A DNA stretch of 44,234 nt from Bacilli bacterium (GCA_045612145.1 JAZKYN010000113.1:1-44234); one strand, 5' to 3'. Shown: positions 2,204 to 35,877, numbered from the stretch's first letter. The notes: generated by a model not told the origin, from the letters alone. Numbers and translations: made by a program.

Positions 2204-2623
2204 ATGAATACTGAATTGAAAAGAATTCATTTATCTGAGTCTTGAGTTCCTCTTGATTCCATGACTTATCGCGGAATTAGTGTGGATTTCTATGAAGACT
2301 GCTTAGGACACCAAGTAGTTACGATGTGGAAAGACAAAGTTATAGAATTTGGAGTATATAATACAGTTTATCAAGACGACATGAAATTAATTATAGATGA
2401 TCACTTGGATACTATTACTAGATTCAAAGATCAGTCGGACTTATATGGATCCAAATTAACTTGATTTCAAAACGGTTCTTTTAGGGATATTAAATTAGTA
2501 TATAAGGGTAGACTACTAAAAGTATACATTAATATAAATGAAAACGATCTGTTTTCAATCGTTCAAGATGCGGAAACAGTATTAAGAAATTATATTTTTA
2601 TAAACACGTCAAAAGACGCTTAA
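2204..2623 (+). CDS. Hypothetical protein, 139 aa (TGA=Trp at 2243 and 2462)
   Basis: ATG 1 nt after the helicase stop; single frame to TAA 2621-2623 with readthrough. Confidence 0.75.
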
Positions 2624-2648
2624 CATTTAAATCAATATATGTTATAAT
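2606..2648 (+). promoter_or_regulatory. ACGTCA-class early promoter (isolated copy)
   Basis: ACGTCA 2606, 8 nt, TTAACA 2620, 17 nt, TATAAT 2643; same geometry as 37 other copies. Confidence 0.8.
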
Positions 2649-2677
2649 TATACTGTAAACAAATGGAGGTTATTAGT

Positions 2678-3097
2678 ATGAAATTTAGATTTAATTTTAA
2701 TTTAGAAGTTTGGGTTGATGGCATTGAAATCGAAGCCAAATCAGAAGAAGAAGCAATTGAACAATTATATAAAATGTCTGTTCAAGAATACTTTGAAGAA
2801 GGTTATGATAGAAACAGTTCAATTTCAGACATCGACTCAGAAGTTATTGAATACAGACAAAAAGTAAAAGCTTATGATATTGAATGGGATATCGAAGAAG
2901 ATGACTATGAAGATAAAGAAGAATATATTAAGTTAATTAATTCTTTACCTGAAGAAGTAGTTGTTGAAATTGAAGTAAATCCAGAATTAGATAATAAATA
3001 TCATTTATCTGAAGAAGACCATATCGCGGACGAAATTTCTTATAAAGTCGGTCGTGATGTAAAAGATTTCAAATATATTGTTTTAGAGGAATTTTAA
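2678..3097 (+). CDS. Acidic hypothetical protein
   Basis: GGAGG RBS favours ATG 2678; ORF track. Confidence 0.75.
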   Translation: MKFRFNFNLEVWVDGIEIEAKSEEEAIEQLYKMSVQEYFEEGYDRNSSISDIDSEVIEYRQKVKAYDIEWDIEEDDYEDKEEYIKLINSLPEEVVVEIEVNPELDNKYHLSEEDHIADEISYKVGRDVKDFKYIVLEEF

Positions 3098-3120
3098 TAA
3101 TTAATTAAGGGGGAAATATT

Positions 3121-3951
3121 ATGAAACCAGTTATTAAATGGGTTGGAGGCAAAGGAAGTGTGCTTCCATTATTCGAAGATTTAATTAAACCATATTTAAA
3201 AGAAAATAATACGTTCTATGAACCGTTCGCTGGAGGGCTTGCGGTTTCTTTAGCGTTACAACATAAAAATACAGTTGTAAATGATTTAAATTCAGAACTC
3301 ATTAATATGTATAAAGTTATTAGAGATAATCCTGAAGAACTAATTTCGGAATTAAAGTGTTTTCAAAATAGTCATAATACTGAGTTCTATTATCATGTTA
3401 GAAATTTAGACAGAACTGATACTTTAAGTAGAATAACTGATGTAGCTAAAGCAGCAAGAACTATTTATTTAAACAAAACTTGTTTCAATGGTTTATATAG
3501 AGTTAATAGTAAAGGCCAATTCAATTCCCCTATTGGTAGAACAGCTTCGGGCAAAACTCCTGACATTGTTCAAGAAGAACTAATTAGAGAAATGAGTCAA
3601 TATTTGAAAACAGTTCAATTTCATAATGGAGATTATAAAAATTGTTTAGTGACTGCTAAAGCAGGGGATGTAGTTTATTTAGACCCACCATATGACCAAG
3701 ATGAATCAATTTCAACTGATGGTTTTGTTGGTTATCAAAAAGAAGGTTGGACTAGAGAAAACTTAAGAGAATTAAAACGACTTTGTGATGAATTGATTTT
3801 CAGAGGTTGTAAAGTTATTATTAGTAATAACGATACTGAATTTGTTAGACAACTTTTCACTGGATATAAATTTAGAGAAATCGAAGTTAAACGTTCTATC
3901 AATAGAGATGGAAATAAAAGAAAAGGAAAAGAATTAGTAATTTATTATTAA
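3121..3951 (+). CDS. dam: DNA adenine methyltransferase, Dam/DpnM (D12) family, probably GATC-specific
   Basis: KWVGGK, YEPFAGG (SAM-binding motif I), NDLN, YLNKTCFNGLYRVN, YLDPPY (catalytic motif IV). Confidence 0.92.
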   Translation: MKPVIKWVGGKGSVLPLFEDLIKPYLKENNTFYEPFAGGLAVSLALQHKNTVVNDLNSELINMYKVIRDNPEELISELKCFQNSHNTEFYYHVRNLDRTDTLSRITDVAKAARTIYLNKTCFNGLYRVNSKGQFNSPIGRTASGKTPDIVQEELIREMSQYLKTVQFHNGDYKNCLVTAKAGDVVYLDPPYDQDESISTDGFVGYQKEGWTRENLRELKRLCDELIFRGCKVIISNNDTEFVRQLFTGYKFREIEVKRSINRDGNKRKGKELVIYY

Positions 3952-3957
3952 TTAATT

Positions 3958-3965
3958 GCTAAATT
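3958..3965 (+). promoter_or_regulatory. GCTAAATT motif, candidate phage late promoter
   Basis: The same motif precedes the genes at 17295, 18665, 22287 and 40265 (copies at 17204, 18609, 22272, 40219); no sigma-A promoter at this position. Confidence 0.55.
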
Positions 3966-4004
3966 ATTTGATGTTGATAAAACAAACAAAGGAGAGTTTT
4001 ATAT

Positions 4005-7000
4005 ATGAACGAAACTGCTATTGTATATATTGTTCACTCAGACTTAGATGAAAATAATATTTTCGCAATGTTTGAAGATGAAGTAGAAGCAATTATGTAT
4101 GCTAGAAGACATAAAGAAGATTTAACTTATGTCGACAGAACTGAAATGACTTTAGATGAATCAGGTGACTATGACGAAGTTCTTAGTGCTGAAACTATTT
4201 GGGTTTATGATGAAGATGTTGATCCAGAAGACATTGAAGACACACCTGAATTATCTGATGAAGAATTATTTAATATTGATTTCGATGAACTTGAAAAATC
4301 ATTAAATGATGAAGATGATACTACTTGGTTTGAAGATCTTGATACAGATAAATTAGTAGAAACATTAGAAGAAAATGAAGACATCGTTGAATGTAAAGAA
4401 TGTTTTGAATTATTCCCAAAAGAAGCTTGTACTAAAATCGCGATTGGATATATTTGTCCAGAATGTGGCAAGATTCACAGTCATGAAGAGTCAGAATTCG
4501 AAATTGATTCAATTCCAGATGTGTTAATTGCTGATGAAGATACTTTTAAGATTGATTTTCCAGAATTAGAAAGAACTGATTATGGAAATGACATGATTCC
4601 AGATGAACCAACACCAGAAGTTGAAAACGATCCAATTTCAGAACCAGAATGTGTAGGTCCTGAATGTGAAGCACCAGTCGAAGCTCCTGTTACTAAAGAT
4701 GAAACTATTACTAAATTAGTAGTTGATGAACATGAAGCTATCGATGGTTATGAGAAAGCTAAAATCGAAATTGAAGCAAATTCAGAATTAGATGAAAAAG
4801 AAAAAGAAGAAATTCTTGATACTATTGAACATATTAAAGAAGAAGAAATCGAACACATCGAAGAACTTGAAGAGTTGGTTGATGAAGTAGAAGAAACTAA
4901 AGAAGCTGATGAACCTGCTGAAGAGTCTGAACCAGAAAAGCATGAAGTTTTAACTGAAGCTCCTAAATATCCACCACTAGCGGGTGAACAAACTAAGTTA
5001 GATATTTTATTTAGTAACAAAGAAAGTAAGTCTAAAGAAGAAGGAAAACCTCTTTATGGTAAGGGTTATAAATTATGTATTTATGACTATACACAGAACA
5101 ATAATGGTAGTTTTGGAATTAAAGATATTGATACTGAATGAGATAGCTATAATCTTAGTAACATCGAAAATGAATATCCTGAAATTGGAGCAGCTAAAAA
5201 AGATGCAGAAAAACTTTCGAAACAGTTAAAAGATGAAACTATTGGCATTTATATTATTGAATATAAAGGAACAAATCATCCGTATCTTTATTTATTTGAA
5301 GATGGAAAACAAACTAAAACATATGCTAAAGACAAGATAGAACATTTCGAGAAAGAATTTGATAAACATACTACATCTACTAAACAAAAAGAAGGTGAAC
5401 AACAAGAAAATTCTACAAAAGCTTCTACAACAACTTGGACTTTTGTTAATCCAGAAGTAGAAATTAAAGTTGGTACTAAAGGTGGAGAAGCTTCAGTTGC
5501 TATCAAAAAAGGTACAAACCTAGCAGAAAAAAAAGACTTGGAGGGTGTAATTTTTGCTTTTAAAGCAGTATCAGATTTAAAATCAACAGACTCAAAAGTT
5601 GTTAAAGTTAGTGACATTATTAAGACAAAAAACGAAATGGGTAATGTTAACCTTAGCGTAGATAAGAACTATTCTAACTTGACTACTGAAAGTAAAGAAA
5701 AACTTGCTGATGGGGTTACTCTTTATATTACTGTTAAAGAAGGTGGTAGTACTTTTACTAAAGCAAAGTGTACAGTTAAAGTAGTTGAAGCAACAGGCCA
5801 AACTGTTAAAACTAAGAAAGAAGAAGACCCTCCTGTTGGAGTCACTAAAGGACCAACACCTGAACAACTTAAAAGTGCTTACAGACTATTAATAGCTCTT
5901 TTAGGAACAAGTGCTAAAGCAGCAGAATACATTACTGTAGAAGGTAGAGGTAAAAATATTACATATTCTTTAGCTCAAGATATGAATTTTAAGGATGTTA
6001 CAGAGGTGATCAAAAACCTTCAAAAAGATAAATTAGGTGAATCTTTAACAGAACACATTAACGAAGAACATCCAGCTATTGAATCAGATCAAGTTTTAGT
6101 GGGAACTGATAATGCAGTAGTTGACTGCAAAATAAATAAAGTAATTTCTCACAGCGAAGATGAAAAACCAGTTGATTGTAAAGGTGAAAAGAAACCGCTT
6201 AAAAAACCATTAACTGAAGCTTTAAGTGAAGATCAACTTCGAGTAATGGAAGAATACTTAAAAGCCGCTAAATTCAATTCATTAGAAACTGAATGGACAG
6301 ACGAAGGTAATTTTTATATTGATGAATGTAATGCTTACTTAGATTATAATACTAAAACTAATAAATTTGAATTAGGACTTTCTATTTATCATGCTAGTGA
6401 AGATAACAACGCTGAGTATCCAGAAGACAACACTGATGAAGAAGAATTTACTTATGACTCTTTAGCAGAAATGTATGAAGATGAAGAATGTAAAGAAATC
6501 TTAGATATGTTGTATGAAGAAAACGAGCATGACTTTACTGAAAGTTTAACTGAAGAGACTCACGCTAAATATGCTAAACCAGAAGGTAATAGAGTACAAG
6601 CTTATAACAATGCATTAAAATATGCTAAGAAAGAAAACAAACCATTCATTTATGGTTATTCCCAAATGGGTGATGGTAAATTCTTCGCGCTAGAACAACC
6701 AATTAAAGTTTCTAGTACACCAGCAGAAGCTGAAAAAGAATTTAAGAACAGACACAAAAGATGTTCTGTAGTTTATATGGTATATCCAGATAAAGACTTT
6801 GTTACTGAAGGATTATTCACTAAACAAGAACAAGAAGAATATAACATGGATGAAGATGGAAATTCTTTAGACAGTTATGATACATATATTAGATGTGGAT
6901 TCTGTGATGAAATCTACACTAAATCAGAATGTAAGTATGAACGTAACTTAGGTTGGTTATGTCCAAGCTGTGAAGCTGCTATTTATTCTCGTGGTGAAAA

Positions 7001-7040
7001 ACTTACATTTGTTGACCCAGATGAATTTTTAGAAAATTAA
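4005..7040 (+). CDS. Large acidic multi-module protein, 1011 aa, putative internal head protein (one TGA=Trp at 5139)
   Basis: Track ORFs 4005 and 5538 are in frame with only TGA 5139 between them; CxxC zinc ribbons; ferritin-like EHEAI..YE/EEIEH segment; recurrent LTE/LVE sites. Confidence 0.8.
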
Positions 7041-7053
7041 TATTGTATATTAT

Positions 7054-7175
7054 ATTGAGCTTGACAAAAGCTTAATGCGCCTCAGGTTAATCTGAATGCA
7101 AACTCATTTTAATAGAACACTAGCTGAGCTGATAGGACAGACTTGGCTAGTGTATAAAAACTAATAGGATAGGAG
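7054..7175 (+). promoter_or_regulatory. Structured 5' leader of the 7186 gene
   Basis: Hairpins ATTGAGCTT/AAGCTTAAT and ACACTAGCTGAG/CTTGGCTAGTGT; two small hairpins with the identical loop ATAGGA (7129-7140, 7161-7172). Confidence 0.5.
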
Positions 7176-7185
7176 AACATTTAAA

Positions 7186-7653
7186 ATGAAATTTTACTCA
7201 GAAAAACTTAAAAAATTATTTGATACAGAAAAAGATTTAGTCGCAGCTGAAAAAGTTGTAGACGAAGAAAACGAAAAGAAAAAATTAGCTTCAGAACAAA
7301 AGAAAGAAGAAGCTAGTAAAGTAGAAGATGCTTTCAAAGCACGTAATGCAGCAAGACGTGAATACAACACTAAATTAGTTGAAGCACGTAAAATTTATAA
7401 CGATGCGATCATTGCTGCTAAGAGAACATTTAATGAAACTTTAACTTCAGCAACTGAAGCTAAGGATAAAGCTGAAGAAGCTTATAATGTCGCACTAAAA
7501 GAATTCACAGCAAAATACGAATCTTATCACATGACTTTAAAAGACGGTGACAATGTTGTTACTATTTCTAATGCAAGTGATAAGAATTTCGAAACAATGG
7601 GAAAAGAATTCAATAGTTTTTTAGACTCATTATTAAATATTTGGAAACTTTAA
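7186..7653 (+). CDS. Coiled-coil hypothetical protein
   Basis: AGGAG RBS; A/E/K-rich helical sequence. Confidence 0.8.
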   Translation: MKFYSEKLKKLFDTEKDLVAAEKVVDEENEKKKLASEQKKEEASKVEDAFKARNAARREYNTKLVEARKIYNDAIIAAKRTFNETLTSATEAKDKAEEAYNVALKEFTAKYESYHMTLKDGDNVVTISNASDKNFETMGKEFNSFLDSLLNIWKL

Positions 7654-7715
7654 TTTAATTTAAAAAAACTGAGGCAAATTGATTAAAATATCCAAACCAA
7701 TATCGTATAATATTA

Positions 7716-7819
7716 TAGAGGATGTAAAAACCTCTAATTCATAGTAGATAACTTCGGTTATCGTTTCCTCCTTTCAGCAGTGGTAATCTAATTCCTCCTA
7801 GACTATCACTGTTTTTTTT
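7716..7819 (+). ncRNA. Putative ~100-nt small RNA with two anti-Shine-Dalgarno motifs
   Basis: TATAAT at 7706; hairpins TAGAGG/CCTCTA and GATAAC-TTCG-GTTATC; TTCCTCCTTTC single-stranded; terminator stem with ATTCCTCC loop then a T-run; no ORF. Confidence 0.7.
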
Positions 7820-7898
7820 ATTTTCCAAAACACGTCGTTTTCATATTTACATTTTTTGATAAATAAGTTATAATTATAATGTAAGGAGACGTGATAGT

Positions 7899-8090
7899 AT
7901 GGCAAAGAAAGTTTATACAGTTCAACCAAAGAAAGATAAAAGTGTAATTAAGTTTACTTTAAAAACTGAATTACATAAACTTCCAAATAAATTACATTTG
8001 GATGCACAAATTAATTATCCTGCTAGAGTTCATGAAGATAAAAGATACAAGAAACCAAAGCATAAGGGTAAAATTTACAATGACGACTAA
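7899..8090 (+). CDS. Small basic protein with an ArfA/BrfA-like C-terminus
   Basis: 63 aa, Lys-rich, ends RVHEDKRYKKPKHKGK; own promoter and AGGAG RBS; family assignment is by eye only. Confidence 0.6.
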   Translation: MAKKVYTVQPKKDKSVIKFTLKTELHKLPNKLHLDAQINYPARVHEDKRYKKPKHKGKIYNDD

Positions 8091-8159
8091 ACACGTCAGT
8101 TTTCATTGTACTTTTTATCTTATTTAATTTATAATATAATTAATCAAGGGGGAATCTTT

Positions 8160-8549
8160 ATGAGAACATCGGAATTTAAGGGAATTAAAACTATTTTAAA
8201 TAAATATATTAGTCAATCTACCTCAATAGCAGAATTATGTGTAGTAAATGATGAGATTACTTTTGATCATCTTACTATTGGACAAGTTAAAGACTTAACA
8301 GAGAAAGCTAGAGATTTACAAAGTAAAACTGATACATTTTTAAAAGACGAACTTTATCATATTATAGGTATGGGTAATTTATCTGCGTCACAAACTGCAA
8401 CTTTAAATAAACTAGTAAAAGATATTACAGTGCATCGTTCTGTAGTTAAAGCTGTAGCCGGACTTCCAACATTACCAACTAAAATTAGTTCAGTTTCAAA
8501 ATATAAATCGAAAACATTTGGATTTGCTTTACATTCAACTAATGTTTAA
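8160..8549 (+). CDS. Hypothetical protein
   Basis: Promoter plus AGGGGG RBS favour ATG 8160. Confidence 0.75.
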   Translation: MRTSEFKGIKTILNKYISQSTSIAELCVVNDEITFDHLTIGQVKDLTEKARDLQSKTDTFLKDELYHIIGMGNLSASQTATLNKLVKDITVHRSVVKAVAGLPTLPTKISSVSKYKSKTFGFALHSTNV

Positions 8550-8624
8550 AACACGTCAATTTCAACTTTACAGTTTAAGCTATTTATGTTATAATAATAT
8601 TGTAAGTTAACGGAGGAAATAATT

Positions 8625-9011
8625 ATGACAGACAAACAAATTCAAGCAGTTAAAGACAGATTAAATGAAAAGTATTATGGAAACGAACCACATTTTCCAG
8701 ATAACTTAAAGCAACCTATTACTAAAGAAGATAAAACTTTATATAAAGAATTATCTTGTAGAGAAATGATTAATAGTAGTTTAATCTATGGAGATGATCC
8801 TTTTAGAAAAATTGATAAATGGTGGTATGGACATGGTTATTGTGAAAGATCTTATATGTCGGACTACGAAGATGAATTAGGTGAAGAAAGAGTTAGACAA
8901 TTATATGAAGAACAAAAATATGATATTAGCCAAGCAAGAATTCATCATAACGTTCATACAGATAGTGAAGGTTTAAGTTATAATAGTATTACTTGGGCAG
9001 ATGAAAGATAA
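8625..9011 (+). CDS. Hypothetical early protein
   Basis: Promoter, GGAGG RBS, ORF. Confidence 0.8.
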   Translation: MTDKQIQAVKDRLNEKYYGNEPHFPDNLKQPITKEDKTLYKELSCREMINSSLIYGDDPFRKIDKWWYGHGYCERSYMSDYEDELGEERVRQLYEEQKYDISQARIHHNVHTDSEGLSYNSITWADER

Positions 9012-9023
9012 GGGGAAATTTTT

Positions 9024-9371
9024 ATGAAAAATTATTTAGTTTTATGTAATTTTGCAAGTTATGCAGAAGATGATTATGAATTATTTACTAATCAATGGAC
9101 AGTAGGATCATTTGATACTTTAGAAGAATGTTATGAAGCATGTAGACAAGATGCTTTACAAGTTGCTAGAGATGCTTATGAAAATATGTATGACGAAGAC
9201 GAACAAGAAGAACTACAAAATAAGTTAGATGACTTTATGGAAGAATTAGTTAAAGTTCATAGAGAAGAAGTTGACTTAGTATATTTTGAAAGAATCTTAA
9301 TTAGTTATTTAGAATATACTGATTCTAACGGTCCACAACATTTAGATTATTCAATTATGAAATTAAAGTAA
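9024..9371 (+). CDS. Acidic hypothetical early protein
   Basis: AGGGG RBS, ORF. Confidence 0.8.
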   Translation: MKNYLVLCNFASYAEDDYELFTNQWTVGSFDTLEECYEACRQDALQVARDAYENMYDEDEQEELQNKLDDFMEELVKVHREEVDLVYFERILISYLEYTDSNGPQHLDYSIMKLK

Positions 9372-9451
9372 AGCACGTCAAAAGTAGCTTTACTTTTTTC
9401 TTTATTAATGTTATAATATATATGTAAATAAGTTAAGGAGGAAAAGAACTT

Positions 9452-9727
9452 ATGAAAACATTAATTAAAGGCAAAGTTAAACAAATCATCGTTAATGAAT
9501 ATTGGGATTCACATGGAAACTCAATTAGTTGGGGCAAGCAAACACATAAGTTTGATACCGAAAAAGAATTTAAAATTGTTTCAAAGAAAGAAGAAATTTT
9601 TGGTGTTGAGTTTGACGTCTGGAATATCTTCGTTGATGGTAAACAATTTGACGAAGAGTTTGAACTTACAGGTTATGCACTAAAGGATACAAAATTAATT
9701 CTTAACGGTTGTGTAGGTGCCGGTTAA
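9452..9727 (+). CDS. Hypothetical early protein
   Basis: Promoter, AGGAGG RBS, ORF. Confidence 0.8.
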   Translation: MKTLIKGKVKQIIVNEYWDSHGNSISWGKQTHKFDTEKEFKIVSKKEEIFGVEFDVWNIFVDGKQFDEEFELTGYALKDTKLILNGCVGAG

Positions 9728-9761
9728 AAACATAATATAATATAAGGAGGAAACAATTATT

Positions 9762-10286: not shown

Positions 10287-10360
10287 ACACGTCAGCCTTA
10301 ATTTTACAACTTTCATATATTATGTTATAATAATTATAGAATAAACGGAGGAAATTAATT

Positions 10361-27914: not shown

Positions 27915-27940
27915 GACTAGTTAATTCTAGTCTTTTTTTT
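27914..27940 (+). terminator. Intrinsic terminator
   Basis: AGACTAG-TTAATT-CTAGTCT followed by a T-run. Confidence 0.8.
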
Positions 27941-27959
27941 ATTTACTTTTTTGGATAAT

Positions 27960-28078
27960 GAATCGAATCGATTCGGGATGGGGGGGTGGAAGTACTTCAC
28001 ACTAAATTTAGTATGGAATAGTTCGGATTCAGATCGATTCGTGATCAACGAAAACGATCTGTTTTGGACGGTCGGATA
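27960..28078. repeat. GATC/GAWTC-rich intergenic block 1 with ACTAAATTTAGT palindrome
   Basis: Palindrome 28001-28012, GGATGGGGGGG, three GATC and five GAWTC; related to the blocks at 32045 and 34000. Confidence 0.7.
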
Positions 28079-28150
28079 GTACGTCGACTATTGATGTACT
28101 TTTTTCTGTTTTTGTAGTATAATATATTTGTCAATCAAGGGGGAAAACTT

Positions 28151-28534
28151 ATGTCAAACAATATTTCTTATTCAACACATTCTTATAACATTCAAAACTT
28201 AACTCAAATTAAACTATCAACTTTAAACTCAACTTTTTCTAATCAAATTAATTACTTATTAAACTTCTACAAATCACACAAAATTAAACATTTAAACTTA
28301 TCAACTTCTTATCAAATTACTCTAACACTTTTAAACTCTTCTAATCTTGACTTATTAAAACTTATTTCATTATTAACTTATTTAAACTTTAATAATATTA
28401 CAAATCCAACTAACCTAACTTCATTAATTAATCAACTTCAATTTACACCAAACTCACAATTAATTCTAATTGATTCTATTTCTGAAATTGGAGAAATTAT
28501 TGAAACTAATTATTATTTTAAAACTTTAGATTAA
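28151..28534 (+). CDS. N/L/S/T/I-rich protein encoded by an almost G-free sequence
   Basis: Promoter, AGGGGG RBS, terminator; C-terminus aligns with the 23107 protein. Confidence 0.65.
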   Translation: MSNNISYSTHSYNIQNLTQIKLSTLNSTFSNQINYLLNFYKSHKIKHLNLSTSYQITLTLLNSSNLDLLKLISLLTYLNFNNITNPTNLTSLINQLQFTPNSQLILIDSISEIGEIIETNYYFKTLD

Positions 28535-28635
28535 TTTCTAAAGTTTTTTTATTACTTAAGTACGTCAGAAGTTGATTTACTTCTTTACTAAAATGTAGTA
28601 TAATATATTTGAAAAAAATAAAGGAGAAAACAATT

Positions 28636-28950
28636 ATGAATAAAAAAATGTTATTATTAAGTATTTTAAATAATCCAACTAAAAGTCAAAATCAATATGT
28701 AGTGAGATACGATAGAGGAGATGAGTATGGATACTATTGTGAAGGTGTATATTATGGTAAAGATGGTTTTGAAGTATTAGAGAATGTTAATAAGTTTAAA
28801 ATATTTAGTTATGAAGAAGTTAAAGAATTAGATTTTGAAGACTTAAATGAAGTATTAAGAAGAGAATGTGATTGTGAAGATTTAGAAGTTAATTTTGAAT
28901 ATATTAGTTTATATAATTTAGTTTTGGAATATTTAATAGAAACTTTATAA
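28636..28950 (+). CDS. Hypothetical protein, C-poor coding sequence
   Basis: Promoter, AAGGAG RBS. Confidence 0.75.
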   Translation: MNKKMLLLSILNNPTKSQNQYVVRYDRGDEYGYYCEGVYYGKDGFEVLENVNKFKIFSYEEVKELDFEDLNEVLRRECDCEDLEVNFEYISLYNLVLEYLIETL

Positions 28951-29036
28951 AACTAATAATTAAGAAAGTACGTCAATTTGGGATGTGCTTTTATTTTTAT
29001 ATATGATATAATATATTTGTAAGTGAGGTAAGTAAT

Positions 29037-29252
29037 ATGAATAAAAGAGTATTTGAAATTAAATTAGAAGTTATTGGTATTGATGTATTAATGTTAATTT
29101 TAAGATGTAATGGAGAAATATTAGAAGTTTTAGAAGAAGATTGTATTGATAATATTTTAATTGAAGTTGGAGAATTTTATAGTAGATTAGAAAAGTATAA
29201 TTTTGATTTAAGATTTGATAAGTTAAAATTAAATATTGATTTTGAATATTAG
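29037..29252 (+). CDS. Hypothetical protein encoded with no cytosine (paralog of 26342..26581)
   Basis: Promoter, GAGGT RBS; no C in 28989-29339. Confidence 0.7.
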   Translation: MNKRVFEIKLEVIGIDVLMLILRCNGEILEVLEEDCIDNILIEVGEFYSRLEKYNFDLRFDKLKLNIDFEY

Positions 29253-29416
29253 TTTAAATTAAATAAGTAAATATTAAGTTATAATTATTATGTGAATATA
29301 TTGAAGTAGTAGTTATAATTTAATATTTTTATTTGAAGTCACGTCAATTATTACTTTACTTATAGATTAAACTATGATATAATATATAATGTAAGAAAGA
29401 GAGAGGAATAAATATT

Positions 29417-29710
29417 ATGAAAATTAGAACAATTGAAAATGAAGAAATTATTGTAAGATGTGAAGACAACAGTGACGTTGAAATTATTAGTAAAAGTACA
29501 AATAGAAATTATGTAGTTTATGAATGTGTAGGACCGATCGACAATTCTAGAACAGATATGTATGTAGTATTTGATATGACAGATGAAAGTGAAAGTCCAG
29601 TATTAGTTGACTATATATTTATTTGTGGACCGACTGAAGAATTAGAAGACTATTTAGACTTTGATGTTTACATTAAGGAATATGAAAAGAAATTAAGTAC
29701 GTCAATCTAA
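29417..29710 (+). CDS. Acidic hypothetical early protein
   Basis: Promoter, GAGG RBS. Confidence 0.8.
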   Translation: MKIRTIENEEIIVRCEDNSDVEIISKSTNRNYVVYECVGPIDNSRTDMYVVFDMTDESESPVLVDYIFICGPTEELEDYLDFDVYIKEYEKKLSTSI

Positions 29711-29771
29711 GATGTACTTTTTCTTTATAATGTAGTATAATAATATTGTAAGAAAGAAAGAGGAAATAATT

Positions 29772-30038
29772 ATGTACAACACAAAACTATTAAACAAATT
29801 TTATGAAGCTTTATTCTCAACTGATTTTAATGACTTTGAAACTGCAACACAAAACATGAAGACAGATTGTTTAGAAACATGTACAGACTTTGATTCTTGG
29901 ACAAATAAGTTAGTAGATACTTTTGTTGAAGAATATGATGTAGACAAAAATCAATTAGTTCAAGACATGAAAAACGATTCTAACTTTATGGAAGACTTAA
30001 GATTTGAATACGACGACTTAGTTGATATGTTAGATTAA
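29772..30038 (+). CDS. Acidic hypothetical early protein
   Basis: Promoter, GAGG RBS. Confidence 0.8.
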   Translation: MYNTKLLNKFYEALFSTDFNDFETATQNMKTDCLETCTDFDSWTNKLVDTFVEEYDVDKNQLVQDMKNDSNFMEDLRFEYDDLVDMLD

Positions 30039-30130
30039 GTTTTAAAGTACGTCAATTGTTGATGTACTTTTTTCTTTACTTTTGATATAATATATTTGTA
30101 AGTTGATTACAGAAAGAGAGAAATAAAACT

Positions 30131-30427
30131 ATGAATAAAATAAATAAAATCTTAAATAATGTTAAAGAAGAAAGTAAAGACTTAGTAAAGTCTGAAATGA
30201 CTAGAGTACAAAAAGACTTTAGTAAATTAACTGAAGACGAAAAAGAAACTGTTTACTGTACTGTCGGAACAATCGGATTTGTATTTGATGATATGTCTGA
30301 ATATGAAATTAACAACACTCCGGTTCAATTTGATGAAGATGTATTTTTAGATTCTTTAGACGAAAATACTAAAATAGATTTATGTACTTTAGTTGTTGAA
30401 TATTGTACTGAAGAAGACTGTGAATAA
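30131..30427 (+). CDS. Acidic hypothetical early protein
   Basis: Promoter, ORF, terminator after the stop. Confidence 0.8.
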   Translation: MNKINKILNNVKEESKDLVKSEMTRVQKDFSKLTEDEKETVYCTVGTIGFVFDDMSEYEINNTPVQFDEDVFLDSLDENTKIDLCTLVVEYCTEEDCE

Positions 30428-30516
30428 AACAGTCTTTTTTATTTTACGTCAATTCAAGATATACTTTTTTCTTTAGTTGTGATATAATATAAATGTAAAT
30501 GAGTGAGGTAAGTATT

Positions 30517-30672
30517 ATGGTTAAAGTTAAATTTGAATATCGTGACGAAATGTCAAAAGGTGAATGGAGGCAACAAGAATGTATTGTTAGTTCCGTTCAA
30601 GAATGTAAAAGAATTTATGGTTTAGGAATTGATTGTGAGTATAGAATTATTGATGTTAAGGAGGTAAAATAA
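30517..30672 (+). CDS. Small hypothetical protein, 51 aa
   Basis: Promoter, GAGGT RBS; below the track cutoff. Confidence 0.75.
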   Translation: MVKVKFEYRDEMSKGEWRQQECIVSSVQECKRIYGLGIDCEYRIIDVKEVK

Positions 30673-30673
30673 T

Positions 30674-30847
30674 ATGTTTGAACTTAGATATGGTTATCAT
30701 CGTGATAATATAGAGAAAAAAGAACTCTACGATAATCTTGACGTTGCAAAAGCTGAAGCTTTATATCGTTCAGACAAACACTTTGCTTATGATTTTGTAG
30801 TCTTAACAAATGTAGATGATAATATAGTTCTTTATGAACGATATTAA
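30674..30847 (+). CDS. Small hypothetical protein, 57 aa
   Basis: AAGGAGGT RBS; coupled to the previous gene. Confidence 0.75.
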   Translation: MFELRYGYHRDNIEKKELYDNLDVAKAEALYRSDKHFAYDFVVLTNVDDNIVLYERY

Positions 30848-30945
30848 GTAAAGAGAATATTAAATATCAAGTAGAGTACGTCAGATAGTACTTTACTTTT
30901 TCTTTATATTAATGTATAATATAATTGTAAGGGAGGAAATTAATT

Positions 30946-31269
30946 ATGAATAACTATCAAGAAGCATTAAATAATGTTAAAAGAGTTTATGTAGAAAGTG
31001 ACCATTATGATGAAGAAGATATTAGACTACTACAAGAACTTGTAGACAGAGAAGTTCCTTTAACTCCGACTTATAAAAATACTTATATTGAACATAAAGA
31101 ACATTATTTAGATAAAGATTATGAAATGAAGTATCATTGTCCAAAGTGTGATTCAATAGTTTATCCAATTGGTAGATGTAGTAAGTGTCATCAAAACTTA
31201 GATTGGAATAAGTATTATATTATTGAAGTGGAAGACGGACATACTTATTATAGAAATAGGAGGGATTAA
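30946..31269 (+). CDS. Zinc-ribbon phage protein
   Basis: CPKC...CSKCHQNLDW. Confidence 0.8.
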   Translation: MNNYQEALNNVKRVYVESDHYDEEDIRLLQELVDREVPLTPTYKNTYIEHKEHYLDKDYEMKYHCPKCDSIVYPIGRCSKCHQNLDWNKYYIIEVEDGHTYYRNRRD

Positions 31270-31270
31270 C

Positions 31271-31555
31271 ATGAGAGATTGTTATAATAGAATTACACCT
31301 AACTTTGAAGAGTGGGAAAAATTAGGTTGGATTTGCACAGAGATTCATGAACAAACATTTACACTTTCTAGACCAGATGATTGTTATTTAGACTTCGACC
31401 AAATTGTTTTCGAATTATATGAAGAAGATAAGACTCCAAAAGTATGGAAAGAAAACATTAGTTTAGATGGTTGTAGAAAGTTAGATTTTACACCTGAAGA
31501 ACAACTTCAAGTAAATAAAGATATTCAAAACTACTATGAAGAAATTAAAAAATAA
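31271..31555 (+). CDS. Hypothetical protein
   Basis: AGGAGG RBS favours ATG 31271. Confidence 0.75.
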   Translation: MRDCYNRITPNFEEWEKLGWICTEIHEQTFTLSRPDDCYLDFDQIVFELYEEDKTPKVWKENISLDGCRKLDFTPEEQLQVNKDIQNYYEEIKK

Positions 31556-31573
31556 TCTGGAGGGACAAGCAGT

Positions 31574-31738
31574 ATGATTAAACTAGAATTAACTGAAGAA
31601 GAACTACAATTCATCTACGATCGCTGTTCAGCTAAAGCTGCAAGACTAGAAGACAGTAATTTAGAAGACACACCATGTTATAGACTATCTTGGATTATTA
31701 TGAACAAGATAATTGAAGCAAAGAAGAATAAAAATTAA
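31574..31738 (+). CDS. Small hypothetical protein, 54 aa
   Basis: GGAGG RBS; below the track cutoff. Confidence 0.7.
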   Translation: MIKLELTEEELQFIYDRCSAKAARLEDSNLEDTPCYRLSWIIMNKIIEAKKNKN

Positions 31739-31802
31739 AAAAGAGGAAAAAATATGAAAAGGAATATTGTATATTATTATAGAGATAGAGGAGGCGGACT
31801 CA

Positions 31803-32018
31803 ATGGAAACTTATAAATGCTGTATATGTGGAAAGGAACACACTGGTTGGGGTAATAATCCACAAGGCGCTGTAGATACTAGCAAGAAAGTAATTCAGTG
31901 GTCTGAATTAGATCGCTGCTGTGATGAATGTAATCATAAGTATGTACTTCCTGGTCGTATGTTTAGATTCTACAGAACAATTAAAAACGAATCATTAGTT
32001 AAAAGAGAGACTGAGTAA
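31803..32018 (+). CDS. Zinc-binding phage protein
   Basis: CCICG...GWGNNP...RCCDECN; GGAGG RBS. Confidence 0.8.
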   Translation: METYKCCICGKEHTGWGNNPQGAVDTSKKVIQWSELDRCCDECNHKYVLPGRMFRFYRTIKNESLVKRETE

Positions 32019-32044
32019 CATCAGTCTTTTTTATTTAATTAGTT

Positions 32045-32170
32045 GTTCAGTAATTGTTCAGAATCAGATCGATGCGAATCATGTAGTAGCTTTGGTTTCA
32101 CTAAATTAGTGTGAAGTAGTTTGGATTATTACGATGCGCGATCTGATTCAACTTATGATTCGGGTAATTT
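32045..32170. repeat. GATC/GAWTC-rich intergenic block 2
   Basis: CACTAAATTAGTG at 32099, TTACGATGCG, clustered GATC/GAWTC between a terminator and an ACGTCA promoter. Confidence 0.65.
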
Positions 32171-32253
32171 GAGATAGTACGTCAGTTCTGAATTTACAAT
32201 TATATTAATTTGTGATATAATATATATGTAAATGAATAAAGGAGTGCTTAACT

Positions 32254-32421
32254 ATGACAACAATTCATCTTATTAAATTAATTATTAATATTCTACTTAC
32301 TATTACATGTGTTTGGTGGGTAGCAGTAGAACAAAACTTTTGGTCTATTTCTATGCTTGTTTTAAATATTAGTAGTTTATTTTTAAGAGGTGTTTTAATA
32401 GGAGCAGATATTCAAAAATAA
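32254..32421 (+). CDS. Small membrane protein, 55 aa
   Basis: Promoter, AAGGAG RBS; two hydrophobic segments. Confidence 0.7.
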   Translation: MTTIHLIKLIINILLTITCVWWVAVEQNFWSISMLVLNISSLFLRGVLIGADIQK

Positions 32422-32505
32422 TTTATTGTAGAAAATTAAAAAAATTTAAAAATTTTTGGGTGAAATATTGTATAATATTAATGGAAGTAAGTGAGGTACA
32501 ATTAA

Positions 32506-32841
32506 ATGATTAAAAAAGCAATATTAAAAAAATTAACTAAAGAACAAGCAGCAGCAATTATCAGTAAAAGTAAATACTTAACACGTGACTATGAAGCATT
32601 TGTTGATGACTATGAATTCGGCGACGTCGACAGTGGTTTCGGTCAAGGTAATTTCTTTACATTAGACGAAGATAAAACAAAAATTGTAATCCAATGGTTA
32701 GACGACAATTATACTGCTTATGAAATTATTGTTGATAGTTTAGAAGAATGTATTGTTAGACTTAAAGAAATTGAAGACTGCGAAGGTAATGTTGATTTAG
32801 ATAAATCAGAAATTGTAATTGATAGTTATAAAATGGACTAG
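32506..32841 (+). CDS. Hypothetical protein (paralog of 34525..34845)
   Basis: Shared TKE.A..IISK, GF..GNFFTLD.D.TK.V.QW, DSLEE. Confidence 0.8.
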   Translation: MIKKAILKKLTKEQAAAIISKSKYLTRDYEAFVDDYEFGDVDSGFGQGNFFTLDEDKTKIVIQWLDDNYTAYEIIVDSLEECIVRLKEIEDCEGNVDLDKSEIVIDSYKMD

Positions 32842-32849
32842 AGGTAAAA

Positions 32850-32999
32850 ATGACTGAACTTGATATGTTTTGGAACGGGTTTATAGAAGCATACAACAGA
32901 ACTTTAGTTTATGGACTTGTACATATTCTCGTGCTATGTTTATTTATAATTTTCGGTATTGTCGGTCCGATTATTGTTTATAGTAATAGAAACAGATAG
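32850..32999 (+). CDS. Small membrane protein, 49 aa
   Basis: GAGGT RBS; one hydrophobic segment; terminator follows. Confidence 0.65.
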   Translation: MTELDMFWNGFIEAYNRTLVYGLVHILVLCLFIIFGIVGPIIVYSNRNR

Positions 33000-33059
33000 T
33001 TAAGTTATCTGTTTTTTTATTTTTCACTGTATAATATATTGTAGAGGAGAAGAACTATT

Positions 33060-33275
33060 ATGGTAGAAGAAGTAATGACTATGGAATTTGAAGACGACTT
33101 TAAAAAAGAGTTGATCAGTATTATTAAACAATCACTAAAAGGTACTAAACTTACAGAACGTGAAGTAACGATCCTATTTAATTGGGTAAGACATCAGAAC
33201 GATCCAGCGTTTAGTTTTGTACCAATTAAGTATAGAACTATTAAACCTGAAAGATCAAAGAAGAAAGGAAAGTAG
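33060..33275 (+). CDS. Hypothetical protein
   Basis: TGTATAAT promoter, AGGAG RBS. Confidence 0.7.
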   Translation: MVEEVMTMEFEDDFKKELISIIKQSLKGTKLTEREVTILFNWVRHQNDPAFSFVPIKYRTIKPERSKKKGK

Positions 33276-33279
33276 AAGT

Positions 33280-33558
33280 ATGGGTTATAAAGAAGACTTA
33301 GCAGCAGCAATGAAAAGACAGAACGATCTGATCGTACAACAAGTGTTACTACAAATAATTGGTATCGTCGCAGAATCAGAAACGTACGATGAATTTAGAA
33401 AGAAGATGTATGGTATCGCATTAGGATATTTAAAAGACATGGAACAAATGGGTGTCAGTCCAGACAAACTAAATCAGATGTCCGATGCGATCGATCAACA
33501 GTTTAATGTCACTAAAATTAAAGAACCAGAAATGACAGATGACATGTTTATAATTTAA
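33280..33558 (+). CDS. Hypothetical protein
   Basis: ATG 4 nt after the previous stop. Confidence 0.7.
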   Translation: MGYKEDLAAAMKRQNDLIVQQVLLQIIGIVAESETYDEFRKKMYGIALGYLKDMEQMGVSPDKLNQMSDAIDQQFNVTKIKEPEMTDDMFII

Positions 33559-33671
33559 GTTGTCTAATAATGTAGTTTCACGTCAGTTCAGAGTTAGCAA
33601 ATATTACCAATTATGTTATAATTATATTGTAAGTTAAATAAAGAAACTTATAGAAATGGAGTATAATTATT

Positions 33672-33956
33672 ATGAACTTGACAAAAGTACAAGGTTGTTA
33701 TTCTAAAGAATTAAGAGAAGCAACACCAACAATTAAATTATGTTTAAAAGAAAGAAGTATATCAGTTAAACAAATGATTGATATAGTAGATGCAATTATT
33801 GAACCAGCACACATTAATGCTGAAGCAAAGAAAAGATTTATTACTAACTTACACAAATGTGAAACAAAAGAACAAGTTGACAAGTTGTGTTATGAAGCAG
33901 TAATTCATGGAATGTATTATCAACCAAAGAAACAAAGAGAAGTAGTTAGAGTATAA
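33672..33956 (+). CDS. Hypothetical early protein
   Basis: Promoter, GGAG RBS, terminator. Confidence 0.75.
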   Translation: MNLTKVQGCYSKELREATPTIKLCLKERSISVKQMIDIVDAIIEPAHINAEAKKRFITNLHKCETKEQVDKLCYEAVIHGMYYQPKKQREVVRV

Positions 33957-33999
33957 CTACTTTTTTATTTACTTTTATTTCAGAATACGTTATAACAAT

Positions 34000-34220
34000 G
34001 TCGAGGAACAGATCAGAAGAACGATCTGATTCAGAAGTTTATTCACTAAATTTAGTATGACAGTTACGATGTAGATGAATCAGATCACGATGCGTGATTC
34101 GACGATCGGTATTCAGGATGGGGGGTAACGATCCGATTCAAGTAAAGGTGATACTAAATTTAGTGTGGATTCAGGATACAGTTACGATGCGTGATCAGAT
34201 GAATATGATGAATATCGGAC
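34000..34220. repeat. GATC/GAWTC-rich intergenic block 3 (internally duplicated)
   Basis: ACTAAATTTAGT at 34045 and 34153; CAGTTACGATG twice; CGATGCGTGAT twice; GGATGGGGGG; six GATC. Confidence 0.75.
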
Positions 34221-34295
34221 ACGTCAATTGTTTGTTTATTTATAAAATAAAATATGATATAATATTATTGTGAGTAAGTTAAACGGGAGATTGAT

Positions 34296-34445
34296 ATGGG
34301 TGATTATATAGTTATAATGAATTTAATTACAATAGGAATATCTATAAGTATATGTTTAATATTAATAGTAATAGTAGGAATATTTTTAGATACGAATGAA
34401 GAAAAAGAAAGTAATGAATATTTAGAAGATTGTTGTAAAGATTAA
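34296..34445 (+). CDS. Small membrane protein, 49 aa, C-poor
   Basis: Promoter, GGGAG RBS; Ile-rich helix and acidic tail. Confidence 0.6.
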   Translation: MGDYIVIMNLITIGISISICLILIVIVGIFLDTNEEKESNEYLEDCCKD

Positions 34446-34524
34446 GACACGTCAGTTTAACGTGTCTTTTTATTTAGATATATATTATAATATAATTGTA
34501 AATAAATAAGAGAGGTACATAAAT

Positions 34525-34845
34525 ATGACAGAATTAAAAAGATATACAAAAGAAGAAGCACAAAAGATTATTTCTAAACATGCAGATATGATTTCAGACA
34601 TTGAAGACTTAGGTGAAGATTATAATAATGGAACATTAAATCACGGTTTCAGTTGTGGTAACTTCTTTACATTAGACACAGATGAAACTAAAGTAGTTGT
34701 TCAATGGATGATTGATGGTGATAATGCAACAGAAGCAGTTGCAGATAGTTTAGAAGAATTAGTAGTTTGGTTATATGTTATTGAATACTACGGTGGCGAA
34801 TGTAAATTAAAAGACGGTAAAGTTGTTTGTCTAACACGTCAATAA
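34525..34845 (+). CDS. Hypothetical protein (paralog of 32506..32841)
   Basis: Promoter, GAGGT RBS; clear similarity to the 32506 protein. Confidence 0.8.
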   Translation: MTELKRYTKEEAQKIISKHADMISDIEDLGEDYNNGTLNHGFSCGNFFTLDTDETKVVVQWMIDGDNATEAVADSLEELVVWLYVIEYYGGECKLKDGKVVCLTRQ

Positions 34846-34902
34846 TTACTTTACTTATAGTATATAATATGATATAATATAATTGTAAGGAGAATAAAGA
34901 TT

Positions 34903-35049
34903 ATGATTACAGTATACAAAGAAAATGGTAAAGTTGATATTGGAGGTTCAATTAAATTAACATTATGTTTTTTGGTAGGTGTAATAATTGCAGGCGTATT
35001 GTCTGTACCACCAGTAGTTTGGTTGCTTTTGTATATTGCTAATCATTAA
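34903..35049 (+). CDS. Small membrane protein, 48 aa
   Basis: Promoter, AAGGAG RBS; hydrophobic C-terminal half. Confidence 0.7.
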   Translation: MITVYKENGKVDIGGSIKLTLCFLVGVIIAGVLSVPPVVWLLLYIANH

Positions 35050-35104
35050 AAAAATACGTCAGTAATTACTTTACAAAATAAAAATAATATTGTATAATAT
35101 ATAT

Positions 35105-35737
35105 GTAAGGTTGATAAGGATGAGCTTACGAGAGGGCACAAGAGTATACGGCATCGTAAGAAACTTCACAATTGTAAAAAGATTCCGCGTCCGGCTCTGA
35201 TGCGATAAGTCTTACCTTACTTAATATATCTTCTGTGTAAAGAGTTTATTATTATATATAGTAAATTGTTTAGGCCGAAGATATACGTGTCGAGGCGTAT
35301 TTATAGCTCAATACACTACTGTTGTATAACAGCAAATATTGAATACTATAATGGAGCAAGGGTAGCGTCAGCGGCGCAAGTTTGCAGGTAGCATGTAGGA
35401 GAAACCTGAAGTATTAGATAGGAAGTCCGGAGCCGACAAGTGGTGTGAGTCCACTTCTAATGCGATACCATATCACCAACCCCTGGTGGGCAAGAGCGTA
35501 GTTCATTGTGTGGTTCAATTCCACAGTGGTGCCGTCTGAACAACGAGAGTTCAAAACACAAATAGTTTAACGAGGCATGTAAAGTCCTACGTCGTAGTTT
35601 GGGGCCTAAGAAGTAGTTGCAAATACTTCGTGTTAAACTTAACTTTGAGGATTACTTGTTTATACTTGTTTCATATATTTACTCCTTTCTGCGGCGAAAG
35701 CCATAAATTAGACATTCTATATTAGAGTGTCTTTTTT
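35105..35737 (+). ncRNA. Large (~630 nt) structured non-coding RNA with two tRNA T-arm-like elements
   Basis: Own ACGTCA promoter (TATAAT 35093) and terminator (35710-35737); no ORF; raised GC; helices 35105-11/35214-20, 35125-31/35154-60, 35225-33/35277-85, 35564-71/35632-39; T-arms 35438-56 and 35509-25; GGC-GAAA-GCC. Confidence 0.8.
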
Positions 35738-35877
35738 ATTTGTACGTCAGTTCAAACTTTACTTTGAGATATATTTATTATATAATTATATTGTGAGTAG
35801 CTATTATTGTATAAAAAATGTAAAAGTTTATTGTATAATATTATGAATGCAAAGTAAAGCAGTAGGAGGTATTCAAT

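Follow-up and report, generated by a model that had tools for sequence, protein, structure and literature searches.

The early promoters of a phage contig assigned to a Bacilli bacterium (GCA_045612145.1 JAZKYN010000113.1:1-44234; this whole stretch of 44,234 nucleotides (nt), called the window below, was analysed) carry an invariant hexamer, ACGTCR, eight base pairs (bp) upstream of the -35 element. The composite ACGTCR-N31-TATAAT was found 38 times, always on the plus strand between 2606 and 35786, and in none of 100 shuffles. The hexamer (the box) has about an even chance of being a DNA-level class mark of phage early promoters, recognised by a phage reader in contact with RNA polymerase and setting apart the TGA-free genes of a phage in which TGA stands for tryptophan.

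ACGTCR occurred 42 times on the plus and 6 times on the minus strand (48 in total; 13.5 expected on both strands together); 38 of the 42 plus-strand copies lay exactly 31 bases 5' of TATAAT and the other four, at 16814, 16946, 32624 and 35589, had no promoter. Aligned consensus of the 38 sites: aaaR-Y-ACGTC(A35/G3)-R-TTT-N4-T(T/G)TAC(T/A)-N17-TATAAT-N5-TGTAA(G/A). Column counts: Y at -1 of the box, C 20 and T 18; ACGTC, 38/38, then A 35 and G 3; -35 element, T38, T27/G10, T36, A34, C35, T24/A13; TATAAT, 38/38, with a preceding TG in 24/38; TGTAAG, T37, G34, T33, A32, A35, G21/A14. The distance from box to core was identical in all, and the information content amounted to 12.7 bits for the box, 9.14 for the -10 and 7.95 for the -35 element. 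A box-blind weight matrix made of the -35-to-start columns only recovered 38/38 sites, gave none on the minus strand and no box-less promoter; a looser hexamer scan had the same outcome. The predicted start was a G, six bases 3' of the -10 element, in 34/38 sites, and 34/38 leaders were 16–33 nt long with a Shine–Dalgarno sequence (the four exceptions: 8, 43, 85 and 773 nt).

Three upstream open reading frames (ORFs) ended in TSI-stop (23597, 24746 and 29710) and one in TRQ-stop (34845), the box lying within their last codons. Most stop codons of the remaining upstream ORFs stood 2–30 nt 5' of the box, which explains a part of the upstream A-run; over all sites the stop codon was found from 265 nt before the box start to 11 nt after it. 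On its upstream side the box has an A-run near -53, on its downstream side a T-run near -41. A preliminary description of this DNA had claimed a fixed geometry without spacing variation, a box better conserved than the -35 element and a box that dictates protein C-termini; all its checkable points were correct.

The 38 promoters are listed below by position in the window; the plus strand is given as (+), z values refer to predicted hairpins, and G103 and G104 are two related phages treated further on.

2606..2659 (+), box promoter, box to TGTAAA; -35 TTAACA; heads the operon with a Dam methylase
7832..7885 (+), box promoter; box ACGTCG; -35 TTTACA; T-run ends directly 5' of the box
8093..8146 (+), box promoter; -35 TGTACT; hairpin (z -4.3)
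8553..8606 (+), box promoter; -35 TTTACA
9375..9428 (+), box promoter; -35 TTTACT; hairpin with the box in the loop (z -4.0)
10289..10342 (+), box promoter; -35 TTTACA
10927..10980 (+), box promoter; -35 TTTACA
11536..11589 (+), box promoter; -35 TGTACT; terminator-like hairpin (z -2.1)
12288..12341 (+), box promoter; -35 TGTACT; hairpin (z -5.1)
12828..12881 (+), box promoter; -35 TTTACA; hairpin with the box in the loop (z -6.1)
13659..13712 (+), box promoter; -35 TTTACT; the homologous G104 gene has a CGCTCA promoter
14056..14109 (+), box promoter; -35 TTTACA
14785..14838 (+), box promoter; -35 TGTACT; boxes of the homologous genes AACTCA (G104) and tttgtcag (G103)
22634..22687 (+), box promoter; box ACGTCG; -35 TTTACT
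23033..23086 (+), box promoter; -35 TTTACC
23586..23639 (+), box promoter; -35 TGTCTT within a terminator stem; box in the upstream ORF end (TSI-stop)
24735..24788 (+), box promoter; -35 TTTACA; box in the upstream ORF end (TSI-stop)
25469..25522 (+), box promoter; -35 TTTACT
25857..25910 (+), box promoter; -35 TTTACT; hairpin with the box in the loop
26266..26319 (+), box promoter; -35 TTTACT
26625..26678 (+), box promoter; -35 TTTACA; T-run ends directly 5' of the box
27079..27132 (+), box promoter; -35 TTTACT; heads a KTSC-domain gene, the G103 and G104 homologs of which have their own boxes
27391..27444 (+), box promoter; -35 TTTACA; a separate terminator ends directly 5' of the box
28081..28134 (+), box promoter; box ACGTCG; -35 TGTACT; terminator-like hairpin
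28562..28615 (+), box promoter; -35 TTTACT
28970..29023 (+), box promoter; -35 TGTGCT; terminator-like hairpin
29341..29394 (+), box promoter; -35 TTTACT
29699..29752 (+), box promoter; -35 TGTACT; terminator-like hairpin; box in the upstream ORF end (TSI-stop)
30049..30102 (+), box promoter; -35 TGTACT; terminator-like hairpin
30446..30499 (+), box promoter; -35 TATACT; a separate terminator ends directly 5' of the box
30878..30931 (+), box promoter; -35 TTTACT; terminator-like hairpin
32179..32232 (+), box promoter; -35 TTTACA
33580..33633 (+), box promoter; -35 TTAGCA
34221..34274 (+), box promoter; -35 TTTATT
34449..34502 (+), box promoter; -35 TGTCTT within a terminator stem (AAGACACGT/ACGTGTCTT)
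34836..34889 (+), box promoter; -35 TTTACT; box in the upstream ORF end (TRQ-stop)
35056..35109 (+), box promoter; -35 TTTACA; heads a structured stretch of about 630 nt without ORF
35744..35797 (+), last box promoter; -35 TTTACT; predicted terminator just 5'; heads the TGA-free operon 35878-40180

Conservation of the box was followed in close relatives. A metagenome scan supplied 30 loci (L023-L052), each found via one exact box, so that only their remaining sites are unbiased; 28 of the 30 matched parts of the window at 69–96% identity, their order being mosaic (L029 joins window parts 28558-29023, 9761-10279 and 31731-31987). Box-blind sites in the relatives numbered 73, with a constant slot filled by ACGTCA (57), ACGTCG (8), TCGTCA (5), ACGTTA (2) and ATTTCA (1). 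Comparison of 31 orthologous promoter pairs gave no substitution in ACGTC and no gap between box and -10 element; most flanking columns (-2, -1 and 6–13) mismatched in 10–32%. The relatives were present, as assembled contigs, in four sequencing runs, two of them metatranscriptomes and two uncertain in kind; contig joints at promoters, with sides of 21–73 letters, most under 50, inside repeated promoters, were not counted. Within the window the four columns between box and -35 element had an identity of 0.31 over the 38 sites (0.294 expected); as these columns are random, the cassettes are not recent copies. That the box is a functionless relic of common descent is thus scarcely credible: the cassettes are clearly one family, and subgroups such as the TGTACT class are alike over their whole length, but the columns next to an unbroken ACGTC have diverged to random, orthologous pairs have kept it without substitution, and it persists even at sites where it has to double as the final codons of an ORF.

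A strong hairpin followed by a T-run was predicted in 14/38 sites (z of -2 or lower relative to 50 mononucleotide shuffles) and was absent from 24/38. In the TGTACT class the box stands in the 5' arm, AAAGTACGTC pairing with GATGTACTTT; at other hairpin sites it takes the loop position. A terminator scan of 22000-36000 returned 16 terminator-like sites (1.7 expected), 8 of them with ACGTC and 3 ending just 5' of a box. These counts, together with the pairing of the TGTACT form of the -35 element with AGTACG of the box region, would fit a box that is part of an RNA or terminator and provides G-C pairs for the hairpin of the upstream transcript, or a processing site. Such a role is very improbable, for most sites lack the hairpin, the box is invariant whether it falls in a stem, in a loop or in neither, so that no single structure is maintained, and the TTTAC class shows no conserved complement 3' of it. 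The distance is fixed to the -35 element and not to the stop codon, which wanders over the range given above. Furthermore, a predicted terminator ends directly 5' of the box at 27391, 30446 and 35744, and a T-run does so at 26625 and 7832; the box at these sites would therefore hardly be transcribed and so acts as DNA. From this arrangement of terminator and box, the hairpins are built around a fixed box and -35 element and not the reverse. That the box works at the DNA level and is locked to the promoter, as proposed, was borne out by an unvarying spacing in the 38 copies of the window and the 73 of relatives, with four random bases adjacent.

More distant relatives have kept the core promoter and carry other upstream words. 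IMG/VR was scanned by the core promoter alone (at least 86 dereplicated promoters listed); among the matches listed, 0/86 dereplicated core promoters had ACGTCR in the slot, and the upstream regions listed contained phased A/T tracts. Two uncultured IMG/VR phages, G104 (232 kb, CheckV 100%) and G103 (221 kb, CheckV 95%), have helicases 58% and 68% identical, respectively, to that of the window (the G104 copy with 4 TGA), and 28 window proteins have homologs in their promoter-cluster regions. G104: 16 promoters, aaaWtt-YGCTCA-AAAAnnnn-TTTACA-N17-TATAAT, the hexamer in the same N8 slot; slot words fitting NNCT[CT]A (TGCTCA 6, CGCTCA 6, CTCTCA, CACTCA, AACTCA and TGCTTA). G103: 14 promoters, 10 with TTTGTC[AG]N or ATTGTCAG abutting the -35 element and 4 with TTTACCTA or TTTAACTA; the lineage word adjoining the -35 element is TTTGTCAG. 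In 16 homolog pairs in which the window gene follows a box promoter, 8 of the relatives' genes follow a core promoter bearing the word of their own lineage, and ACGTCA was found in none.

Since the relatives keep the core and differ in the word, the reader is most likely phage-encoded and co-evolving with the box; a conserved core, turnover of the word between lineages and its uniformity within a genome are what co-evolution of a site with its trans-acting reader would be expected to produce. The promoter comparison points to a probably lineage-specific reader acting with RNA polymerase. No Sigma70_r2 or Sigma70_r4 match over the cut-off was obtained in G103 or G104. Other layouts were observed as well. 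All 14 G103 promoters (135.7–154.7 kb; L293 and L294) show AAAsTCT-G followed by a variable hexamer, a third upstream layout in the family; at several sites the variable hexamer can pair with a word some 26 nt further 5', giving hairpins, and in 10 promoters TTTGTC[AG]N or ATTGTCAG comes next, directly against TTTACA. Several promoters of G101/G102 (L057, L108, L123 and others) read TATGCA-ttttttcc-TTTACA, the hexamer again 8 bp before the -35 element; no homolog of the window helicase was found in G101/G102, and the 744- and 500-amino-acid (aa) window ORFs had no match in G101-G104.

The box might also be read by host polymerase, or by a host factor on it such as an Spx-like adaptor of the polymerase alpha-subunit C-terminal domain (alpha-CTD), and serve as a strength element in the manner of an upstream (UP) element with no phage protein involved. 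It does lie in the UP zone between the A-run and the T-run, other phage promoters with the same core have phased A/T tracts in the slot (among the matches listed), the host bin holds one ArsC/Spx-family gene, and immediate-early promoters must function ahead of any phage protein. The -44 element of Bacillus subtilis Spx is, like the box, a short G/C-containing word at a fixed position upstream of a sigma-A -35 element, and it is read by an Spx monomer held on alpha-CTD and sigma-A (PMC8501982, PMC12242773). The Spx word is, however, A/T-G-C-A/T at -45 to -42 (extended, -46 to -37), about 2–4 bp nearer to the start than ACGTCA at -49 to -44, and it belongs to a host stress regulon, whereas no host promoter with ACGTCA was found here. 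Host promoters of the bin have TTGACA (41-fold) and TTGACT (19-fold) enriched 17 nt before TATAAT, the phage box promoters never G at the third -35 position; the word occurred in this geometry at 0/85 strong host promoters (TTGAC[AT]) and in 0/100 related genomes, a scan of genome contigs with the composite motif gave 0 matches, and the 276 host ACGTCR sites (1.65 Mb) had a -10 element at +37 in no more than 2 cases. Related phages with the same core use other words despite a highly conserved polymerase, and a UP element is A/T-rich at -40 to -60, unlike the invariant G/C-containing core ACGTC. Reading by the host machinery is accordingly rated as quite unlikely.

The contig belongs to a jumbo phage recoded from TGA to Trp; until TGA is read as Trp, its stretches without box promoters resemble broken genes. 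The SNF2 helicase gene (490-2202) contains 5 TGA codons, the first 4 of which are spanned by the SNF2-rel_dom profile match (positions 1-285 of 290); the NrdG activase gene (21473-21988) contains 4, with a Fer4_12 match over positions 2-137 of 137. TGA is read as Trp because these full-length profile matches run across TGA codons; a FocA-like channel gene (2 TGA) is also whole once TGA is read so, and 0/81 genes end in TGA. Genes were assigned to groups purely by promoter position. Box promoters: 65 genes, 8,948 codons, 1 in-frame TGA, 116 TGG. Outside: 16 genes, 3,631 codons, 40 TGA (in 12/16 genes), 19 TGG. By Fisher's test the difference had p = 7e-24 when codons were counted and p = 3e-10 when genes were; TGA out of frame was common in both sets. 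The claim that the box class governs a code-neutral gene set agrees with this coincidence of 1 TGA to 116 TGG as against 40 to 19. Read in the standard code, rpoB and rpoC of the bin are intact, in keeping with the published model in which recoded phages have early genes compatible with that code (Borges et al., below). G104 is also recoded, 14/16 of its promoter-proximal genes being without TGA; two-strand ORF counts under code 4, noisy in AT-rich DNA, were used only for its 1-20 kb and 150-170 kb parts. No credible transfer RNA (tRNA) or transfer-messenger RNA (tmRNA) was detected by ARAGORN in the window, which is a part of the genome (default and relaxed settings, the relaxed output being noise); no suppressor tRNA or other switch device was found in this part either. 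The blocks are as follows.

158..2623 (+), TGA=Trp genes without box promoter: zinc-ribbon protein, SNF2 helicase 490-2202 (5 TGA), 139-aa ORF
2678..17507 (+), TGA-free gene block 1 with box promoters; a single in-frame TGA at 5139-5141
17601..17615 (+), second promoter-like class (TTG-TATAAT-ATAAT), no box and no -35; others at 33, 7045, 17827, 18563, 33029 and 42793
17862..22628 (+), block without box promoters: 2 TGA-containing ORFs, nrdD, FocA-like gene, nrdG, 2 small TGA-containing ORFs
22703..40180 (+), TGA-free gene blocks 2 and 3 (22703-35049 and 35878-40180) with box promoters
40265..44231 (+), block without box promoters: ORFs of 420 aa (10 TGA) and 399 aa (8 TGA), four smaller ones

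Each site is laid out, in the proposed scheme, as upstream stop codon; box at about -49 to -44; 8 bp; TTTACW or TGTACT as -35 element; 17 bp; (TG)nTATAAT; AT-rich discriminator; start at the G of TGTAAG; leader of 16–33 nt with a Shine–Dalgarno sequence. Host sigma-A RNA polymerase would read the promoter core, and a sequence-specific protein touching the bound polymerase (alpha-CTD or sigma region 4) would read the box with the promoter. Location in the UP-element zone at an invariant distance from the -35 element makes it probable that a protein reads the box together with the promoter; a contact with bound polymerase is suggested by the constant register with the -35 element and by a position between the sub-sites normally used by alpha-CTD. 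The box would mark the TGA-free genes, which can be translated in the host code, to fire first and to be switched as a block when the TGA=Trp genes take over. Which way such a switch would work is a matter of odds: shut-off through a factor made early is put forward tentatively, at somewhat less than even chances; a boost by a virion-delivered factor is unlikely and action of a host factor improbable. Replacement of the usual UP-like tract by the box argues for a positive contact.

Several points weigh against a phage reader of this kind or against its tie to recoding. The core is near consensus (TGnTATAAT, 5/6 in the -35 element), so that an activator seems unnecessary, and a site at -47 is outside the core, so that simple occlusion by a repressor is not possible. 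Pfam gave no clear DNA-binding domain among the window ORFs; hints of a reader stayed below the cut-off (AbiEi_4 in 39770-39991 and zinc ribbons). The differing boxes of related phages could reflect different hosts, and gene conversion among cassettes could help to homogenise the word within a genome. Two of the 16 G104 promoter-proximal genes contain TGA; the G103 helicase has no internal stop, so at least that gene is not recoded and the box system is not tied to recoding. In the window itself, gene 4005-7040 (+) has a box promoter and an in-frame TGA at 5139-5141. The label "early" derives from promoter type and TGA-freedom, and the host assignment from binning alone.

The product of 4005-7040, a single open frame, would have 378 aa with TGA as stop and 1011 aa with TGA as Trp; its size could be tied to the stage of infection. 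The second promoter-like class, TYG-TATAAT-ATAWT, has neither box nor -35 element; GTATWWTATAW occurred 14 times (1.7 expected), and 5/7 box-less plus-strand copies head TGA-containing blocks.

The cassettes are compact promoter units of the promoter-early stem-loop (PeSL) type, a variant of the known early cassette. PeSL cassettes of T4-type phages combine an early promoter and a stem-loop at gene-swap junctions (Arbiol 2010, PMC2839356; Comeau 2014, PMC4122927). Shared features: repeated strong sigma-70-type promoters among small ORFan genes (here TATAAT 38/38, 17-bp spacer, TG 24/38); location at indel and replacement junctions between related phages. The stem-loops that overlap or adjoin the promoter in PeSLs and act as terminators there have a possible counterpart in the hairpins predicted here at 14/38 sites. 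Exchange between neighbouring PeSL cassettes yields mini-circles. Differences: an AT-rich stretch in PeSLs, the invariant G/C-containing ACGTCR here (38/38, 8 bp from the -35 element, A/T runs only in the flanks); a Firmicutes-like host, a phage that is not T4-like and a hairpin in only 14/38 sites here. Like PeSLs, the cassettes would double as terminators (14/38) and as crossover points for gene shuffling.

Homology with relatives ended inside promoter modules at 41/85 internal ends (10.6% of the span; 9 expected), many of them 3–10 bp 5' of the box or just 3' of the start. With the mosaic gene order among relatives (e.g., L029) and the documentation of PeSLs as crossover points (PMC2839356), this favours a box that is an anchor or target of cassette-moving recombination, PeSL style or by a site-specific enzyme, with no role in transcription. 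Yet homologous exchange requires neither an invariant hexamer nor a fixed 8-bp distance to the -35 element, any cassette exchange would break at intergenic modules, the word is asymmetric with one copy per site, and no recombinase or homing nuclease was found in the window; a purely recombinational box is distinctly improbable.

Further candidates were tried and rejected: a divergent promoter reading TTGACG from the minus strand (columns -17 to -22 lack a conserved -10); an extracytoplasmic-function-type CGTC -10 element (no conserved AAC 16–17 nt upstream); a palindromic operator (core asymmetric); sites of CtsR, MetJ, CcpA and Spo0A and restriction sites (none of the consensus sequences fits across the 38 sites); a Chi-like hotspot (276 host ACGTCR in 3.3 Mb of strands, below the composition estimate of about 590; the fixed -35 distance does not fit); a primase site (fixed spacing left unexplained).

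Known promoter systems offer partial parallels to a box read through a polymerase contact. The T4 -35 element reads GTTTAC, and phi29 p4 is a parallel for an upstream regulator that contacts polymerase. T4 early "uber" promoters combine UP, -35, TGn and -10 elements with "additional regions of consensus", and virion-delivered Alt changes alpha-CTD and boosts some early promoters, the class being shut off later (Hinton 2010, PMC2988021); unlike here, no discrete invariant hexamer is described in the available portions of that review, and no Alt-like ADP-ribosyltransferase was seen in the window. T5 uses one host holoenzyme for all temporal classes, told apart by a small extra motif, and the phage polymerase-binding gpT5.026 shifts the balance (PMC7472727); the T5 motif is, unlike the box, ATATT in the discriminator and not upstream of the -35 element. 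Early promoters of Kayvirus (PMC7698491) are likewise numbered in dozens and sigma-70-type, extended by TRTGN, with a spacer of 17 bp and a start at a G 6 bp 3' of the -10 element, but have TTGACW as -35 element and, in the available portions of the paper, no named upstream hexamer; the Kayvirus late class, -10 only (TGTTATATTA), resembles the second promoter-like class of the window (PMC7698491). No paper linking ACGTCA with phage early promoters was found: among the matches listed, all on ACGTCA, bacteriophage and promoter were unrelated by title and abstract, and none on upstream elements of early promoters was relevant.

The window is an entire contig in a bin of 1.69 Mb and 165 contigs; the composite motif was on no other contig. 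The rpoB of the bin is closest to that of an uncultured Acholeplasmataceae (61%), Erysipelotrichaceae and "Bacilli" metagenome-assembled genomes. An IMG/VR scan for box, -35 and -10 together gave 14 single-copy matches, at chance level and with no relative among them; INPHARED megablast and tblastn of the 744-aa ORF gave no match. The helicase is 34–37% identical to its best cultured-phage matches (Bacillus phage Flasso, Streptococcus phage Dp-1, Clostridium phage phiCTP1 and Bacillus phage G), and 76/82 ORFs are without PHROG match; the "SPO1-like host-takeover" label of the preliminary description is not supported.

Contig C70 of the same bin (loci L054-L056) was considered as a further part of the phage and rejected: it is a separate siphovirus-type phage or prophage of about 45 kb without box promoters (SPP1-type portal, capsid protein E, RecT, SSB, replisome organiser, HNH). 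One 121-nt segment of C70 matches the zinc-ribbon gene at 81% identity (window 30932-31052). Contig C101 of the bin carries an HK97-type capsid gene.

Stretch 35105-35740 (+), about 630 nt, is ORF-free, of higher G+C, and ends in a hairpin and T-run directly before the next box; predicted fold -175.8 kcal/mol, z -3.46 (20 shuffles), with a tRNA T-arm-like GTGGTTCAATTCCACAG inside. Locus L041 keeps parts of it (three blastn pieces within 35238-35581, 92–97% identical). Rfam gave nothing at the gathering score in the window and, with E values allowed up to 10, noise only; ARAGORN called neither a tRNA nor a tmRNA in 35105-35740. The stretch is a candidate large early phage RNA.

The genes nrdD (TGA-free), FocA-like formate/nitrite channel (2 TGA) and nrdG (4 TGA) stand in a row at 18665-21988 (+) and form an anaerobic nucleotide-supply module, the reductase alone being code-neutral. 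Operon 35878-40180 (+), TGA-free, codes for a protein of 744 aa that matches Helicase_C weakly, an ORF of 363 aa, a fragment of 175 aa resembling N6_Mtase and an ORF of 73 aa in which AbiEi_4 (winged-helix) scores below the cut-off; it may be a restriction-modification-like or anti-defence set. In the 420-aa protein at 40265-41527 (+; 10 TGA) the motif FGPDGGEGDPNP(Q/K)V(I/V)WKS occurs twice, about 150 residues apart, an internal duplication.

Early promoters of phages are commonly regarded as strong host-type promoters and no more; in the present case one short, invariant word at a fixed place defines the whole class. A polymerase-associated regulator is implied, which could be fished out with a 6-bp bait, and the cassettes are compact, portable promoter/terminator parts for low-GC Gram-positive hosts. 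It is a doubtful extension that each lineage of these recoded jumbo gut phages has a private hexamer and its own polymerase adaptor, possibly virion-borne, giving first call on polymerase and a timing locked twice, by promoter class and by what the codon means; at least two lineages would then share a new kind of promoter element, the slot at -49 to -44, with different words in it. In the recoded-phage model of Borges et al. (preprint, 10.1101/2021.08.26.457843) TGA is likewise Trp, compatible genes are thought early and recoded genes late; the word "promoter" is absent from its available portions, which hold no promoter-level model, whereas here a promoter class delimits the compatible set. 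What is new is this link of a promoter class to the code-compatible genes together with the exchange of the box between related jumbo phages; the finding offers a testable handle on the order of the programme in recoded phages.

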